Shown here: one piece after another, positions 2,385 through 42,337 of the stretch
How positions within the stretch are numbered: position 1 is the first letter of the stretch
Layout: the number at the start of each line of letters is the position of its first letter
NCBI GenBank assembly: GCA_964511965.1
Contig: CAZEGF010000023.1
Coordinates: 42,887-106,886, forward strand
Reading direction: 5' to 3'
DNA length: 64,000 nucleotides
From: an uncultured Gammaproteobacteria bacterium
GTDB taxonomy: Bacteria; Patescibacteriota; Microgenomatia; Levybacterales; GWA1-39-11
The notes under the pieces: model-generated
Databases searched by the model: none
What the model saw: the letters and a program-made list of their open reading frames with translations, nothing else
Told to the model about the DNA's origin: nothing
Program-made: the position numbers and the translations under genes

Positions 2385-4120
2385 TTACAGTGCTCTATAA
2401 ATTTACTTGTATAAATAGGAGCTTTTTGGTCGTTTTGCTTTTGATATATAAAGGAAATATTTTGAAGAGCAGCACAATTATTGGGTTCGAATTGTAAGTA
2501 TCTTAGATTCATTGCTAACCATTGATTCTCCCAACCAACATTTCTAAAAAAATTGACGAGCTGTCTAACATTATTTTTAGAATTTAAATCATTAGGTGAA
2601 AGTTTTATATTGTTTTGATCAATAAAATATCTATCGATAAGTTTTTGGTTTTGCGCATTTTGTTTTAGAAAAATAGCAACTGTATTGTTGAGATATACCA
2701 TTTTCCAGTTTGGATGACGAATAATTATGTTAAGAAACGTTTCCCCGGAGGGTGAGGTGTCAGTGTGGGCTAAAATTATGGCATTAAATCCATAATTTTT
2801 GTCAATTAAATCAAAAGTTCTTTGGGAATTTTGCATAGGAAAATATATATTATCAAAAAATGATTTTGGATATGCTTCAGGTCTTCCATCGACAAATACT
2901 TTTTCTTTTGGATATAAGGAAAAGTCTAAATAATTTCCAATATCGTAATTGTTAAATATTGGACCACGTATATTGTTTTTCTTGACAAATTCTATTGATT
3001 CTTTTGCATTGTCAATGGTTCCAAACCCAAAACCATGTATATCAATGTTTTGTTTGATTGATGGAATTAACAATAGAAAAAAAATAATTATTGCTACGAT
3101 TTCGATTTTTCTAATCATTTTCTGCCCGAACTTTTTTTGTTTCTTCTCCAAAAAATTTATAATTTCATTGACAACTATTAACAATGGTATAAAAGTCCCA
3201 ATTGCAAAGAGAGGAAACATCCTGACTGCAAATAATCCAAGAAATGTGAAAAAAATTGAAAGAAGAATATCAATAGGTTTTAACTTGTTCCATGTAAACA
3301 AGATTCCTACCCACAATAAAGCAATGGCAATTTCAAAAAACAGAAATGTCGTGTCGGTATATGAATTTATTGCCGTCAAAAATCCACTGTTTTCCTCCAC
3401 CTTAAAGCCATAATTTTGCATGACAAAAAGTGGATAAAATGCACCCCTTATAAAATTCGGATTTATTAGAGTAGAGACTATTGATGATGATAAAATTATT
3501 AAAAGTGTTTTTGATTTTTCGAATTTAAACTTATTCCTAATTAATTCATCCAGCAAAAATAAAGTAATAGTAGCGTAACCAAGAAAGAAAAAAATATGAA
3601 GATTGGTCCATAAAAGTTGAAGGGGTATTAGCAAATAAATAAGATTAGTTTTTACTTTTCGAAACTTATAAAGAATAAATATGAATAATGCGAGCAGCAA
3701 GTAACTAAATAATTCAGGTTTTACTTCTGTTCTTTCATAAACAATTTGAATATAAAGAAGTGAGACAATTGTGAATGCTAATAATTTGTATTTTCCAAAA
3801 ACATTTTTAACAAGCAGTCCAAAACTCAATAAAGCAAGTACTATTGCTAATATTATAAGTCCATTTCCTCCAAATAATTTATAGATACTGTAAAAAAATA
3901 CCTCAGTTAGCCAATTCGCATTAATGAATGGAAAATTTGGATTGGTATATGAGAGTAGATTGGTTGACGGTACAGTATGTGTTGTAACAATTATTTCACC
4001 CATCTTAAGATAGTAGCCAAGATCACCTACAAGATTTGTTATGGGGTGAAGGTAGTAAAGTCCGAGTAAAATAAAGAGAACGGAAACAGAAGAAATTGAA
4101 AATATTTTAACCAATCGCAT
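2381..4120 (-). CDS. Large polytopic membrane protein (GT-C-like TM core plus C-terminal extracytoplasmic domain), function unknown
   Basis: 579-aa ORF with many hydrophobic helices in the N-terminal two-thirds and a soluble C-terminal ~200 aa. It converges on and overlaps the upstream GT-C gene by 4 nt. Confidence 0.4.
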   Translation of the reverse strand: MRLVKIFSISSVSVLFILLGLYYLHPITNLVGDLGYYLKMGEIIVTTHTVPSTNLLSYTNPNFPFINANWLTEVFFYSIYKLFGGNGLIILAIVLALLSFGLLVKNVFGKYKLLAFTIVSLLYIQIVYERTEVKPELFSYLLLALFIFILYKFRKVKTNLIYLLIPLQLLWTNLHIFFFLGYATITLFLLDELIRNKFKFEKSKTLLIILSSSIVSTLINPNFIRGAFYPLFVMQNYGFKVEENSGFLTAINSYTDTTFLFFEIAIALLWVGILFTWNKLKPIDILLSIFFTFLGLFAVRMFPLFAIGTFIPLLIVVNEIINFLEKKQKKFGQKMIRKIEIVAIIIFFLLLIPSIKQNIDIHGFGFGTIDNAKESIEFVKKNNIRGPIFNNYDIGNYLDFSLYPKEKVFVDGRPEAYPKSFFDNIYFPMQNSQRTFDLIDKNYGFNAIILAHTDTSPSGETFLNIIIRHPNWKMVYLNNTVAIFLKQNAQNQKLIDRYFIDQNNIKLSPNDLNSKNNVRQLVNFFRNVGWENQWLAMNLRYLQFEPNNCAALQNISFIYQKQNDQKAPIYTSKFIEHCN

Positions 4121-38571: not shown

Positions 38572-40224
38572 ATGAAACACTGGAAGTTTTTATCTCAGAA
38601 CTCAAAACTCATAACTCATAACTCGGTAGACGATATTTTAAATTTGTTACTTGCGAACAGAAATATCACTTCAAAAAAAGGGATTGAAACATTCTTAAAT
38701 CCCAATTTAAAAAAGACAGATTTAACTTCTTGTGGGATTGACGCGAAGGAGTTTAAGAAATTCAAAATAAGAATTGAAAAAGCGATCAAGAATGAAGAGA
38801 AAATAATAATTTTTGGCGACTATGACGTAGATGGTATTACGAGTTGCGCTATCCTTTGGGAAACTTTATATGCAAGAACAAAGTATGTTGTGCCATATAT
38901 TCCGGATAGAGCCGATGAGGGATACGGTCTTTCAAAAAAAGGAATCGAAAATGTTCTAAAAGAAAATCCAGACACAAAAATTATAATAACGGTTGATAAT
39001 GGAATAGTTGCATATGAAGCGGTTGATTTTGCCAATGAAAAAGGCATCGAGGTAATTATTACCGATCATCATGTCAAAGGGAAAAAACTACCAAAGGCAT
39101 TTTGCATAATTCACACTACATCACTTTGCGGAGGGGGAATCGCGTGGGTTCTTGCAAAAGAGTTAGCATTTCAAAGTAAAAAAGAAATAACTGAAAAATT
39201 AGAACTTGCAACACTTGCAACAATTGCAGATTTAGTTCCTTTGACAAATGATAACCGCGCAATAGTAAAAGAAGGACTTGAATTATTGAAAAAAACGCAA
39301 CGAGTGGGACTAATTGAACTTCTCAAAGAAGCAGGAATCAGTAATGAAACTCTAGGAGTGTATTCAATAGGACATGCTATAGCACCACGTCTTAATGCAA
39401 CCGGAAGAATTCAAAGTGCGATGAATGCATTGCGCCTACTATGCACAAGAGATCCCAAAAAAGCACGTGATTTAGCACAAATGCTAGGTGGTGTAAATCG
39501 TGACCGTCAGGGGTTAACTGAGGAGTCGGTAAATCACGCTAAACTTTTGGCTATAGAAAACAGTAGTCCCCATATAACAATTGTTTCAGACGCTTCATAC
39601 AACCAAGGAATCATTGGTCTTGTTGCCTCTCAACTTGTCGAAGTATATTACAAACCTGCTATTGCCATTGCTGTCGGAAGTGAAATTTCTAAAGGTTCTG
39701 CAAGATCAATTAGCGGGGTAAACATTATTGAACTTTTAAGAAGTGTTTCAGATACACTTCTTGAAACCGGTGGACACCCAATGGCAGCCGGTTTTAGTTT
39801 GGTGACTGAAAGAATTGAAGAATTTAAAATGGCTCTTGAGAAAAAGGCATCTGAAATAGTAACGGATGAATTACTTAAGAGATATTTAAATATTGATCTT
39901 ATGATCCCTTTCTCAATAATTTCAATGAAATTATATGATGAAATAGAAAAACTGGCACCTTATGGTATGGGAAATCCAGAGCCTGTATTTGCAACGGAAA
40001 AAGTTAATGTAGTTGAGTTAAGAAAGATTGGAAGAGAACAAAATCATCTAAAGTTGAAATTAGAATCGGATGGAAAAACATTTGATGCAGTGGCATTTAA
40101 AATGGCTGATAAAGTAGAACTTTCACAAGGGGACCTAATAGATGTTGCTTATGTAATTGACAAAAATGAATGGAATGGAAAGGTAAATCTTCAACTAAAA
40201 ATCAGGGATATAAAGCTAAGCTGA
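38572..40224 (+). CDS. recJ: Single-stranded-DNA-specific exonuclease RecJ
   Basis: DHH motifs (IIFGDYDVDGITS, ITDHH), DHHA1, and a C-terminal OB-like domain. The start is taken at the internal ATG at 38572 to avoid overlap with cca. Confidence 0.8.
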   Translation: MKHWKFLSQNSKLITHNSVDDILNLLLANRNITSKKGIETFLNPNLKKTDLTSCGIDAKEFKKFKIRIEKAIKNEEKIIIFGDYDVDGITSCAILWETLYARTKYVVPYIPDRADEGYGLSKKGIENVLKENPDTKIIITVDNGIVAYEAVDFANEKGIEVIITDHHVKGKKLPKAFCIIHTTSLCGGGIAWVLAKELAFQSKKEITEKLELATLATIADLVPLTNDNRAIVKEGLELLKKTQRVGLIELLKEAGISNETLGVYSIGHAIAPRLNATGRIQSAMNALRLLCTRDPKKARDLAQMLGGVNRDRQGLTEESVNHAKLLAIENSSPHITIVSDASYNQGIIGLVASQLVEVYYKPAIAIAVGSEISKGSARSISGVNIIELLRSVSDTLLETGGHPMAAGFSLVTERIEEFKMALEKKASEIVTDELLKRYLNIDLMIPFSIISMKLYDEIEKLAPYGMGNPEPVFATEKVNVVELRKIGREQNHLKLKLESDGKTFDAVAFKMADKVELSQGDLIDVAYVIDKNEWNGKVNLQLKIRDIKLS

Positions 40225-40470
40225 TTGTTCAACTAGCTCATTCTCTTTTGGTTTCGGAAGTGGGGAGTGTTTTATCTGAGGGAGATTCGGTTGACTTTGC
40301 TGAACTTCGATCCAATTATTAACCTCTTCTGTCGTAACAGTATTTCCAATTCCTCTTTTTGCAAGAGCTGCTCGATAAGCATCCGACTGTTCTTGAGTTG
40401 CCTCCTGTGCCTTCGGATTCATGGGTCTGTCGTATGGATCATCATAATCCACATTATCTATTCCAGACAT
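40216..40470 (-). CDS. Small hypothetical protein
   Basis: 84 aa, acidic N-terminus, no recognisable motif. Co-directional with 40495-40794. Confidence 0.3.
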   Translation of the reverse strand: MSGIDNVDYDDPYDRPMNPKAQEATQEQSDAYRAALAKRGIGNTVTTEEVNNWIEVQQSQPNLPQIKHSPLPKPKENELVEQSA

Positions 40471-40494
40471 ACAATCATTAAACCTGAATTAAGA

Positions 40495-40794
40495 TTATTT
40501 ATCAACTGATGCAGTAACACTTGAAGCAGTATTCATTCTTAATTCAAAATAATTTGATGGCAATGCTGTAAATGCCAAATGTTTTCTTTCATACAAAACT
40601 GTATCATGTGTTTTATCTGCTATTTCTTGATATTCATCAATTAATTTTTCAATTGTTTCATCAGGCAAGTTACCGGGTTGAATTATTGCATGTTTAATCG
40701 GTTTTTCCCAAGGCACATCTCCTTTTGCAAGAGGATTACATAATCCTTCACCTAAAGTTACCGTTTCAATTTGTGTTAATATTTCTCTTTTCAT
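40495..40794 (-). CDS. Small hypothetical protein downstream of the leader/terminator unit
   Basis: 99 aa. The ATG sits 12 nt after the U-tract of the minus-strand terminator. Confidence 0.35.
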   Translation of the reverse strand: MKREILTQIETVTLGEGLCNPLAKGDVPWEKPIKHAIIQPGNLPDETIEKLIDEYQEIADKTHDTVLYERKHLAFTALPSNYFELRMNTASSVTASVDK

Positions 40795-40805
40795 ATATTT
40801 TTACC

Positions 40806-40833
40806 AAAAAAAAACTCCCTCATGGAGGGAGTT
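40806..40833 (-). terminator. Intrinsic terminator on the minus strand: perfect 9-bp-stem hairpin AACTCCCTC-ATG-GAGGGAGTT followed by U9
   Basis: The palindrome at 40813-40833 plus the A9 run on the plus strand (40806-40814) makes a T/U-run 3' of the hairpin on the minus strand. Confidence 0.55.
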
Positions 40834-40916
40834 CGCGTATTGCACACACGGACTCCCTAAGGGGTAATACCCTTAAAGGAGTTTCTATTCATGGCCACGT
40901 GCAAATTTTTCATTTC
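40806..40916 (-). ncRNA. Candidate ~110-nt structured leader or sRNA (two hairpins with alternative pairing), transcribed from the promoter at 40923-40951
   Basis: Bounded by a consensus promoter and a strong terminator. HP1 is at 40852-40882, HP2 at 40813-40833. HP1's 3' arm (AGGGAGU) can pair with HP2's 5' arm (ACUCCCU). Not matched to any known RNA family. Confidence 0.35.
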
Positions 40917-40922
40917 AAATTC

Positions 40923-40951
40923 ATTATAATAATTCATTTTTTCCATGTCAA
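40923..40951 (-). promoter_or_regulatory. Consensus sigma70 promoter TTGACA-N17-TATAAT on the minus strand
   Basis: The minus strand reads TTGACA (40951-40946), a 17-nt spacer, then TATAAT (40928-40923). Confidence 0.5.
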
Positions 40952-40990
40952 GCTATATTTTGAAGCAAAATATGATATGATACAGCTAAT

Positions 40991-42337
40991 ATGCAAAATC
41001 GTGTTTTAACCGGTGAGGTGGTCAATAAAGTGGGTGAAACCGTCCTAATTTGTGGATGGATAGAGCGGGTACGATCCCATGGAAAAATAGCATTTTTTGA
41101 TATCCGGGATCGGGGCGGAGTCCTTCAAGTAGTTGCAGCAACTCCAGAGACTGTTGTATCAACCGAGGATTTATCAGTCCAGAGTGTCGTAAAAATTACC
41201 GGTACAGTAAAAGAACGTGGTGAGCGGTATGTCAATCCGAATATCCCATTAGGAAAAGTCGAAATTGAATTGACCCAACCGGTTGAGATCATTTCAAAAG
41301 CAGAGGAAATGCCTTTTGATATGGGAGGTACTGAGCTAAATTTACAGCTGCCTACCTTACTTGATTTTCGGACGCTAACACTTCGTAACCAAAAAATTGC
41401 TGACATTTTCCGTGTACAAGCAGAAGTTCTGAATGGGTTTCGTAAAGCTGCATCAGATATTGGAGCTATTGAGATAGTTGTACCAACAATTTCAGCGTCA
41501 GCTACCGAAGGTGGAGCAGAAGTTTTTCCAGTGAAATATTATGATTACGACGCATATCTAACACAGAGTCCACAATTGTATAAGCAAATGATGGTTCCTG
41601 TTTTTGAAAGAGTTTATACGATAGCACATGCTTATAGAGCAGAACCATCAGTCACAACTCGCCATCTTTCCGAAAACACTCAAATGGATATGGAAATAGG
41701 TTTTGTTGAGTTTACTGAGTTATTGGATATTTTGGAAGATGTAATTGTAAACACGTTAAAATACGCCCAAGAAAAAACCGGTGACATTTTGAAGGAATAT
41801 GGAATTTCTGAGATTGCTTTTGGTAATATCCCACGTCTAAAACTTTCAGAAGCTCAGGAAATCATCTTTAAAGAATTTGGCCGTGACTCTCGTGGAGAGA
41901 AAGATCTCGCACCTCAGGATGAAATAGATATCTGTAAATGGGCTCATGAAAAACATGGATCTGACCTTGTAACAATTACCCATTTTCCAACAAAGAAAAG
42001 AGCATTTTATACTATGCCCGATCCAATGGAGCCAGAAAATTCACTATCTTTTGATATTCTTTTTCGTGGTGTTGAAATATCAAGTGGAAGTCAAAGAATT
42101 CATGAATACGCAAAGATTTTGGAAGCTATAAAGGATCGTGGCATGGATCCAAAGAATTTTGCACTGTATCTTCAGGCATTTGAATACGGAATGCCTCCGG
42201 AAGGTGGTTTTTCATTCGGACTTGAGCGTATAACGATGCACATATTAGGACTTGCTAACGTGCGTGAAGCTTCTCTTTTCCCAAGAGATATGGAGCGAAT
42301 AGATGAAAGACTCTCAATCCTTGCCCAAAAAAAATAA
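40991..42337 (+). CDS. aspS: Aspartyl-tRNA synthetase, archaeal/eukaryal-type class IIb (AsnRS not fully excluded)
   Basis: 448 aa with an N-terminal OB fold. Class II motifs (FRAEPS...RHL, GGFSFGLER). No bacterial-type insertion domain. Confidence 0.6.
   Translation: MQNRVLTGEVVNKVGETVLICGWIERVRSHGKIAFFDIRDRGGVLQVVAATPETVVSTEDLSVQSVVKITGTVKERGERYVNPNIPLGKVEIELTQPVEIISKAEEMPFDMGGTELNLQLPTLLDFRTLTLRNQKIADIFRVQAEVLNGFRKAASDIGAIEIVVPTISASATEGGAEVFPVKYYDYDAYLTQSPQLYKQMMVPVFERVYTIAHAYRAEPSVTTRHLSENTQMDMEIGFVEFTELLDILEDVIVNTLKYAQEKTGDILKEYGISEIAFGNIPRLKLSEAQEIIFKEFGRDSRGEKDLAPQDEIDICKWAHEKHGSDLVTITHFPTKKRAFYTMPDPMEPENSLSFDILFRGVEISSGSQRIHEYAKILEAIKDRGMDPKNFALYLQAFEYGMPPEGGFSFGLERITMHILGLANVREASLFPRDMERIDERLSILAQKK

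Follow-up and report, generated by a model that had tools for sequence, protein, structure and literature searches.

In the classical amino-acid leaders (trpL, hisL, leuL, thrL, pheL and ilv; the Trp, His, Leu, Thr and Phe_leader families of Rfam), a short 5' open reading frame (ORF) covers strand 1 of an RNA whose strands can pair as 1:2, 2:3 or 3:4, the stop codon of the ORF lies beside strand 2, and an intrinsic terminator immediately precedes the regulated genes. Expression follows a three-state logic, being off without translation, on when the ribosome is stalled, and off again when the ribosome reaches the stop codon. The vmlR, lmo0919, msrD, erm and cat leaders form, together with bmrB-bmrCD, a group of attenuators that respond to antibiotics or translation stress. 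In mycobacteria, polycysteine leaderless short ORFs are described by Canestrari et al. (bioRxiv 10.1101/834739) as acting on translation through their Cys tract. Here we describe a leader RNA in a 64-kb stretch of contig CAZEGF010000023.1 (hereafter the window, meaning the whole stretch analyzed), where it is encoded on the minus strand of the spacer upstream of aspS and precedes two small genes, referred to below as the cassette. From the sequence of this unit and its relatives, we consider it likely to be a ribosome-mediated (leader-peptide) transcription attenuator with trp-type topology. Comparison with aspS-anchored loci from reference genomes places the host in the Levybacteria/Microgenomates lineage of the Candidate Phyla Radiation (CPR).

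The leader occupies a spacer between divergent genes: plus-strand aspS, which encodes a class II aspartyl-tRNA synthetase (AspRS), begins at 40991, and behind the minus-strand leader come the two small ORFs, the convergent recJ, and then the gene for the CCA-adding enzyme. The coordinates of all leader features are collected in Table 1. A scan of both strands of the window found a single 12/12 match to a sigma70-type promoter, and this is the leader promoter; its relatives keep a perfect TTGACA, a -10 box of the form TAnnnT and a spacer of 17-18 nucleotides (nt) at orthologous positions, and the promoter is predicted to be active. Between 0.05 and 0.16 such promoters per window are expected from the GC content of 34.9%, and on its own the match is only suggestive against this chance expectation. 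Transcription would start near 40916. The 117-nt transcript folds to -40.9 kcal/mol compared to -24.6 +/- 3.5 kcal/mol for shuffled sequences (z = -4.7), and none of 200 shuffles equaled it. An intrinsic terminator stands between the leader ORF and the putatively regulated genes, as is typical of attenuators. Under a stricter scan it was the cleanest of four terminator candidates in the 64 kb, the other three lying inside ORFs and having stems with G-U pairs, so that an earlier description of it as the only clean terminator of the window was essentially right if not literally so.

The original prediction, made from the sequence of the window alone, had placed the sigma70 promoter, two hairpins and a U9 tract here and had noted that AGGGAGU (40858-40852) in hairpin 1 is complementary to ACUCCCU (40832-40826) in the terminator. 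All of these were recovered on the minus strand, as was an 18-codon ORF with its stop codon inside hairpin 1; the leader peptide that had been called speculative is now the best-supported feature of the unit. The promoter had been termed an orphan, whereas it is predicted to drive an operon of leader plus cassette. Both named hairpins are present in what proved to be a richer anatomy of four helices (P0, P1, P2 and T), and the U-tract is indeed adjacent to a 99-amino-acid (aa) ORF with its ATG at 40794, followed by an 84-aa ORF, at a distance of 11 nt rather than the 12 nt given earlier.

Strain-level contigs (L001-L010) carry a leader identical to that of the window except for one loop base and are uninformative on conservation; among these 11 sequences the sole polymorphism in the 221-nt spacer plus leader is C/U at 40842 (minus strand), in the P2 loop. 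Nine further species, with AspRS identities of 53-93%, have a recognizable version of the spacer before aspS and on the strand opposite to it, and a covariance model built from ten sequences added 15 syntenic members, for a total of 24 species besides the window. We also applied a sequence-agnostic rule requiring a TTGACA-type promoter, then an ORF of 10-26 codons, then a hairpin with a U-run. Of 51 testable Levybacteria-like loci, 25 showed this architecture ahead of aspS, or 26 if L046, detected by the covariance model only, is included, and none of 25 loci from other CPR groups did. A pattern scan of metagenomes returned 120 matches, nearly all of which were ordinary gene-end terminators, and only L114 and L196 were true members. 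L196 is syntenic and scores 66.8 bits; with L211, these make up the additional members derived from metagenomes.

The frame of the leader ORF is free of stop codons in 25 of 25 homologues. In the two alternative frames 35 and 45 stops occur, which leaves them open in 1/25 and 4/25, respectively; the chance of an open frame is ~0.41 per shuffled sequence. The ORF is 14-19 codons long in these 25 sequences and starts with AUG, or with GUG in two, and whole-codon insertions and deletions occur among the homologues. Its start is 7-14 nt past the -10 box in 22 of the 25 and 24-28 nt past the box in the remaining three, and none of the 25 has a Shine-Dalgarno sequence in front of the ORF. In the window the AUG is 9 nt past the -10 box and ~3 nt past the predicted transcription start, and the message is probably leaderless or nearly so, with the ORF presumed to be translated. 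The stop codon, which may be UAG, UAA or UGA, falls 0-1 nt from the 5' edge of the G-rich strand, and in one subgroup it lies in the loop just before the G-rich segment. The locus in this way shows a defining trait of the attenuator class, a short 5' ORF that lies before the putatively regulated genes and is maintained as a reading frame.

The encoded peptide is poorly conserved. Where the inner P1 stem changes from GGG/CCC to GUC/GAC or GCC/GGC, Gly is swapped for Val or Ala; pairing is kept while residues vary, which argues that selection acts on base-pairing, frame and stop position and not on the amino-acid sequence. Leader peptides from 21 representative species are basic (mean net charge +2.2), and Asp and Glu together account for 3 of 329 residues as opposed to 10.5% in the proteome. 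Glu is absent from them, Asp and Gly are nearly so, Phe, Asn, Arg and His are enriched ~2-fold, and Cys is enriched 6-fold with just 8 of the 21 peptides containing it. This bias may simply reflect the G-poor strand needed to pair with a G/U-rich strand, and a role for the peptide itself is conceivable. No conserved codon run was found for any residue in the 21 peptides, Ile and Asn being merely frequent 8-11 codons ahead of the stop, and an amino-acid-specific signal was rejected on this basis; should one amino acid be sensed, these recurrent Ile and Asn codons would be suitably placed. Sensing specific to RF1 by way of an invariant UAG was likewise rejected, as UAA and UGA are used in other species.

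In the sensor region, one plain long hairpin overlaps the conserved ORF. In the 24-row model-based alignment, 90.2% of the cells in P1 and T were paired, compared to 75.6% in shuffles (0/500 shuffles equal) and at most 68% in slid controls, and compensatory changes were present in 14 of 17 pairs: 8 of 9 in P1 and 6 of 8 in T, where 95% of cells were paired. P2 is present in both alternative states of the RNA and stacks on the helix between segments 2 and 3 to give a long antiterminator (40859-40825, -19.2 kcal/mol). The P0 and P2 regions are wholly different between species and variable in length, and for this reason pairing was assessed by an alignment-free test, in which the energy of a strand with the partner from its own species was compared to its energy with partners from other species and significance was judged by permutation. 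Same-species and different-species energies were -7.6 and -4.9 kcal/mol for P0, -5.5 and -3.7 for P2, -12.0 and -9.8 for segments 2:3, and -12.6 and -9.6 for segments 3:4, with 0 of 20,000 permutations as good in each case. Narrow windows around segments 2:3 gave -8.8 and -7.9 kcal/mol (1/20,000). The 1:4 pairing that appears in the minimum-energy fold of the window showed no signal (-7.4 and -7.2 kcal/mol; 4,065/20,000) and no covariation, and it was rejected.

Strand B of the leader can pair either with strand A, forming P0 plus P1, or with strand C, forming the antiterminator. Across ten divergent lineages, same-species energies were -18.5 kcal/mol for A:B and -18.7 kcal/mol for B:C, with mismatched combinations at about -13.3 kcal/mol and 0/50,000 permutations as good for each. 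As both pairings are species-matched and of equal strength, strand B has two mutually exclusive partners, and its G/U-rich composition fits with pairing to both. Of the two possibilities raised by the original prediction, a small RNA (sRNA) or an attenuator, this comparative evidence favors the attenuator and makes the sRNA the less favored one. The covariation for which the original prediction advised looking in related CPR spacers is present in P1 and T and is not above shuffles in the columns of segments 2:3; the antiterminator pairing can form in every homologue and is species-matched in the alignment-free tests.

We propose that a strong constitutive promoter would produce an RNA beginning with the leaderless 18-codon ORF and containing four competing strands. 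Strand A is the body of the ORF, strand B holds the stop codon, GGGAG and a G/U-rich run, strand C joins the 3' arm of P2 to ACUCCCU, and strand D is the 3' arm of the terminator with U9 behind it. If the RNA were not translated, A:B would zip up as P0 plus P1, leaving C free to form the C:D terminator, and transcription would stop near 40806 with an RNA of ~111 nt. A ribosome on the ORF but short of the stop codon would hold A open, B:C would form the antiterminator, and D would be left unpartnered, allowing read-through into the cassette genes. A ribosome at the stop codon would cover the GGGAG of strand B, free C, and restore termination. Expression of the cassette would therefore be expected whenever ribosomes lag or pause on the leader while transcription moves on, as might happen in starvation, translation stress or exposure to inhibitors. 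In this scheme the start of transcription, ORF translation, termination, the ribosome footprint and the signal are all predictions.

When the RNA was masked as by a ribosome and then folded, almost all homologues gave the three states expected. With the RNA masked to just before the stop codon, segment 3 paired with segment 2 and P2 was extended into the long antiterminator; with the mask at the stop codon, segment 3 was free, and without a ribosome it was free in most species because P0 and P1 hold strand B. In the window, the closed P0 plus P1 form has an energy of -23.1 kcal/mol, the antiterminator -19.2 kcal/mol and the terminator -12.8 kcal/mol, so that with the ORF strand kept open the antiterminator wins over the terminator. 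P0 plus P1 is the first to fold on the growing chain, and leaving this form would mean unzipping ~17 bp. Once segment 4 is out, the combination of closed hairpin and terminator is much the most stable arrangement (-37.8 vs -26.1 kcal/mol) and is the full-length minimum.

Several observations weigh against this mechanism. In the window clade the nascent fold slightly favors the antiterminator without a ribosome (-25.6 vs -23.1 kcal/mol), which makes the default OFF state hinge on folding kinetics. Column-wise covariation in the core of segments 2:3 was 67.9% compared to 66.3% in shuffles (113/500, not significant); in these columns GGG:CCC is almost unchanged, and the flanks differ in register between species. 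Support for the antiterminator comes from the alignment-free energy tests, whose permutations ignore phylogeny, and the 24-row alignment (A4) was fitted to the structure of the model, biasing the P1 and T statistics toward that structure. As the regulatory codon run is absent and the peptide poorly conserved, codons do not point to the input signal. Clean intrinsic terminators are otherwise scarce in the window.

Regulation of the same two pairings by a bound factor was also considered. A protein of the TRAP, PyrR or ribosomal-protein type, or a small ligand, could bind at the UAGGGAG/AU-rich internal loop and shift the balance between A:B and B:C, with the ORF being incidental. The conserved GGGAG and CUCCC motifs and an AU-rich stretch upstream of segment 1 offer a possible binding site, the peptide is neither conserved nor provided with a regulatory codon run, and the leader has a weak sub-threshold likeness to the PyrR and ribosomal-protein leader models. 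However, the frame is open in every one of the 25 homologues, starts at the 5' end, and keeps its stop at the edge of strand B despite the use of three different stop codons and codon insertions and deletions; a fixed frame and stop position are hard to explain without translation. The leader also lacks the multi-helix junction or conserved loops of a riboswitch aptamer and has no Rfam match, and we regard this explanation as unlikely. At gathering thresholds, a search of the whole window and 12 homologous loci against Rfam returned only tRNAs, in line with the original prediction, in which the element could not be matched by eye to a known riboswitch or sRNA family. In permissive mode the spacer gave only sub-threshold, terminator-driven matches (AaHKsRNA20, Phe_leader, PyrR and others); the best amino-acid-leader model, Phe_leader, reached 19.2 bits where 55 bits are required. 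A CRISPR-DR7 match at 40763-40795 (minus strand), overlapping the start of cassette gene 1, scored 21.5 bits against a threshold of 37 bits and is regarded as chance, being sub-threshold and without a repeat array.

The consensus promoter, stable structure and strong terminator are also the classic layout of an sRNA gene, and the leader is far better conserved than its cargo. A stand-alone and possibly dual-function sRNA could pair ribosome-binding sites in trans through its anti-Shine-Dalgarno-like CUCCC, with an efficient terminator and a cassette expressed by leakage; attenuator RNAs that act in trans are documented in accounts of rnTrpL/peTrpL of Sinorhizobium (PMC7968998, PMC7298713). We give this little credence for the leader described here, since its conserved C-rich and G-rich motifs are base-paired in helices and not exposed, cassette ORFs without a promoter of their own are kept directly behind the U-tract in every species, and a purely trans model explains neither why the ORF is conserved nor why the two alternative pairings are balanced. 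A trans role for the terminated RNA as an added function would be compatible with an attenuator and is conceivable. An ordinary small-protein gene of 14-19 aa, for instance one for a micropeptide of toxin-like or regulatory function, with a terminator of its own and RNA structure serving only mRNA stability, would account for the conserved ORF and the uniformly basic peptides that are nearly devoid of Asp and Glu. It would not account for the B:C complementarity or for residues that diverge freely, Gly, Val and Ala interchanging with changes in the stem, while base-pairing is kept; moreover, the composition bias is what is expected of a C/U/A-rich strand pairing with a G/U-rich one, and a micropeptide gene is very improbable. 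At loose thresholds, promoter-like matches (50 vs 46.6) and terminator-like matches (5 vs 7.1) are as frequent as in shuffled sequence, as they would be if a promoter-like and a terminator-like sequence had met by chance in an AT-rich spacer. The single 12/12 promoter in 64 kb, the fold z-score given above, and above all the conservation of the unit with covariation in ~25 species already refute such a coincidence, to which we assign next to no probability. The attenuator reading is preferred over all of these explanations.

Table 1. Features of the leader and cassette on the minus strand of the window
Feature	Position	Strand	Remarks
-35 hexamer, TTGACA	40946..40951	-	Consensus scan; perfect TTGACA in 25/25 promoter-bearing homologues
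-10 hexamer, TATAAT	40923..40928	-	17-nt spacer to -35; TAnnnT and spacer of 17-18 nt in homologues
Leader ORF, MKNLHVAMNRNSFKGITP	40857..40913	-	Predicted; 18 codons plus UAG stop (40859-40857) inside 3' arm of hairpin 1
Strand A (ORF body)	40870..40904	-	P0 5' strand (40904-40895) plus segment 1, the P1 5' arm (40882-40870)
P0 helix	40904-40895 with 40851-40840	-	Extends hairpin 1; per-species folds
Hairpin 1 (P1), ACUCCUUUAAGGG-UAUUA-CCCCUUAGGGAGU	40852..40882	-	Read from sequence
Strand B (switch strand)	40840..40864	-	Segment 2, CCCCUUAGGGAGU (40864-40852), plus G/U-rich CCGUGUGUGCAA
P2 middle hairpin, CGUGUGU-GCA-AUACGCG	40834..40850	-	Between segment 2 and segment 3
Terminator hairpin T, AACUCCCUC (40833-40825), loop CAU, GAGGGAGUU (40821-40813)	40813..40833	-	-12.8 kcal/mol
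U9 tract	40806..40814	-	Predicted 3' end, attenuated RNA ~111 nt; U-run of at least 5 in all homologues
Cassette gene 1	40495..40794	-	99 aa, orphan; AUG 11 nt past U-tract
Cassette gene 2	40216..40470	-	84 aa, orphan; end overlaps 3' end of convergent recJ

Same-strand ORFs fill the whole stretch from the leader to recJ in every species, and the cassette AUG is 6-30 nt past the U-tract across homologues, with a canonical GGAGG before the first cassette ORF in distant species. A separate promoter between the U-tract and the AUG was rejected for lack of space in the 11 nt available in the window. With no room for such a promoter, the cassette would be expressed only by read-through of the terminator, which argues that the terminator is conditional.

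The cassette genes themselves, at 40216-40794 (minus strand) in the window and in the corresponding interval of L011-L064, are hypervariable orphans, one or two per locus. Their products range from 65 to 235 aa, and an all-against-all comparison showed mostly singletons and a few small families. Searches of 12 cassette proteins against Pfam, PADLOC and PHROGs gave no match, or in the case of PHROGs no informative one. A word-based search with the 99-aa protein found no homologues, and HMMER found one relative, P0001, among 1.84 billion representatives. In L211 the gene for P0001 comes immediately after a near-identical leader, and its public gene call starts 19 codons early (L211 1152-1208) and runs through the terminator; the resulting N-terminus, ...PFHEGVFFWLKN, is the translated 3' arm of the terminator plus the U-tract. 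The 84-aa protein matched only itself in the homology search and is 38-42% identical to the product of the second cassette gene of L011 (nonsynonymous divergence, dN, 0.51). A single-sequence AlphaFold model of a cassette protein had a predicted local distance difference test score of 40 and was too poor for a fold search. Even in species whose AspRS proteins are 93% identical, the cassette genes are no longer recognizable. For the window and L011, which are such a pair (AspRS dN 0.058), DNA similarity covers aspS, the spacer and the leader, breaks off precisely where cassette gene 1 begins, and picks up again at recJ.

The leader is in contrast the conservation peak of the locus, with 87-97% nucleotide identity to L211 as opposed to 35-87% for aspS and 45-60% for the cassette. 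Overall, the L211 leader is 91% identical, its AspRS 63%, and its cassette gene 1 43% (dN/dS ~0.46), and the comparison shows a step in identity within aspS near 41340. Aligned with window positions 40450-42010, L211 1-1525 is a mosaic in which distal aspS is 35-70% and proximal aspS (~40991-41340) is 67-87% identical. The step suggests that recombination moved the leader region between lineages.

In L056, a second leader copy without a promoter was observed between cassette genes 1 and 2 (3438-3553, minus strand); its 23-codon ORF stops at UAG, and it also has a hairpin and a GUCUCCC/GGGAGAU terminator plus U-run, which suggests an internal attenuator or a duplicated module of leader plus gene. 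The element in L114 (4140-4259, plus strand) has TTGACA, 17 nt and TAGCAT, a 17-codon ORF ending in UAG GGGAGU, and a long P0 complement. It has no aspS nearby and adjoins a gene for an HD-domain-like protein and a tRNA gene, followed by small unannotated orphan ORFs. A search for further leader copies elsewhere in the window found none.

A broader and more tentative view is that the leader is a lineage-specific sensor of general translation status, in which a leaderless mini-ORF read by the 70S ribosome gates a fixed slot between aspS and recJ for orphan genes that are swapped in and out. Recombination would repeatedly exchange unrelated small-protein genes in this slot, using the leader and the housekeeping genes on either side as homology arms. 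This view draws on the cargo being unrecognizable at 93% AspRS identity, on the contrast of leader and AspRS identity in L211 with its step inside aspS, on the promoter-less second copy in L056, and on the L114 element, which is found elsewhere and again before orphan ORFs. If it were true, an episymbiont with a minimal genome would keep one hard-wired stress switch and vary what gets switched on.

Some features of the surrounding locus were noted in the course of the analysis. Read by eye, what appears to be an extended -10 element (TG-A-TATGAT) lies at 40973-40981 on the plus strand and ends 9 nt before the aspS ATG at 40991; the motif ATGRTATGATA upstream of aspS is invariant or nearly so in ten aligned species. 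The promoter scan missed this element because it has no -35 box. There is no Shine-Dalgarno sequence before aspS, which may itself be leaderless or nearly so. A leader antisense to the aspS transcript was judged unlikely, as this extended -10 sits beyond the leader's -35 box and beside the aspS start codon. An additional gene for a 148-156-aa DUF559/MTES_1575 protein was observed between recJ and the CCA-adding enzyme gene in the strain-level variants L002, L005 and L006 and is absent from the window, and recJ is fragmented in L003 and L008 by frameshifts or assembly errors. L011-L015, L017-L019 and other close loci come from metagenome-assembled genomes titled 'uncultured Gammaproteobacteria bacterium'. 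Their AspRS and gene order are those of Levybacteria/Patescibacteria, and the titles are probably a wrong taxonomic label.

Gene regulation in CPR/Patescibacteria is almost unexplored, as these bacteria are largely uncultured and have few recognizable regulators. Our literature searches on Levybacteria and CPR bacteria turned up neither leader-peptide attenuation nor structured cis-regulators. The leader is an easily recognized candidate cis-RNA switch and would be a testable example of transcription control coupled to the ribosome, and of leaderless translation, in this group; it is a well-conserved candidate in a lineage with hardly any known regulatory RNAs, and it is linked to an unusual, hypervariable slot of orphan genes. 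If the attenuator is real, the orphan small proteins, whatever their role, would be wired to a sensor of slowed translation, which provides a handle on their function. A covariance model could annotate the leader and correct gene calls that run through its terminator, as for P0001.

Compared to the classical amino-acid leaders, the leader described here has no cognate codon run, and its cargo consists of orphan small proteins rather than biosynthetic enzymes. The classical leaders are led by a Shine-Dalgarno sequence, whereas this ORF is predicted to be leaderless, and the element scores far below the Rfam thresholds and comes from a CPR lineage; a codon run, downstream biosynthesis genes and a gathering-score match to a family model are thus the traits of the amino-acid-leader families that it does not share. 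The mycobacterial polycysteine ORFs, as presented in the preprint cited above, would share with it a leaderless first-cistron ORF, a downstream duplex remodeled by ribosome occupancy, and control of the genes of the operon; by the same account they differ in the codon tract, which is absent here, and in the output, which here would be an intrinsic terminator. For bmrB-bmrCD of Bacillus subtilis, the published description (PMC4191407) gives a leader that likewise lacks an amino-acid-specific run and has alternative stem-loops including an intrinsic terminator. Read-through there is described as needing leader translation and responding to a general slowing of the ribosome, both of which are predicted here too. 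The antibiotic-responsive leaders precede resistance genes (ABC transporters, ABC-F proteins or methyltransferases) and are led by a Shine-Dalgarno sequence, while here the cargo is orphan and there is no resistance gene nearby. With rnTrpL/peTrpL of Sinorhizobium meliloti the leader may share a terminated RNA and a leader peptide as stable products; a trans function is reported as demonstrated in that system (PMC7968998, PMC7298713) and is a possibility here. Taken together, these comparisons suggest a leader that would work like a ribosome-mediated attenuator yet belongs to no described family. It calls for no new mechanistic principle, as each of its features has a precedent elsewhere, and what is new is the lineage and the cargo.

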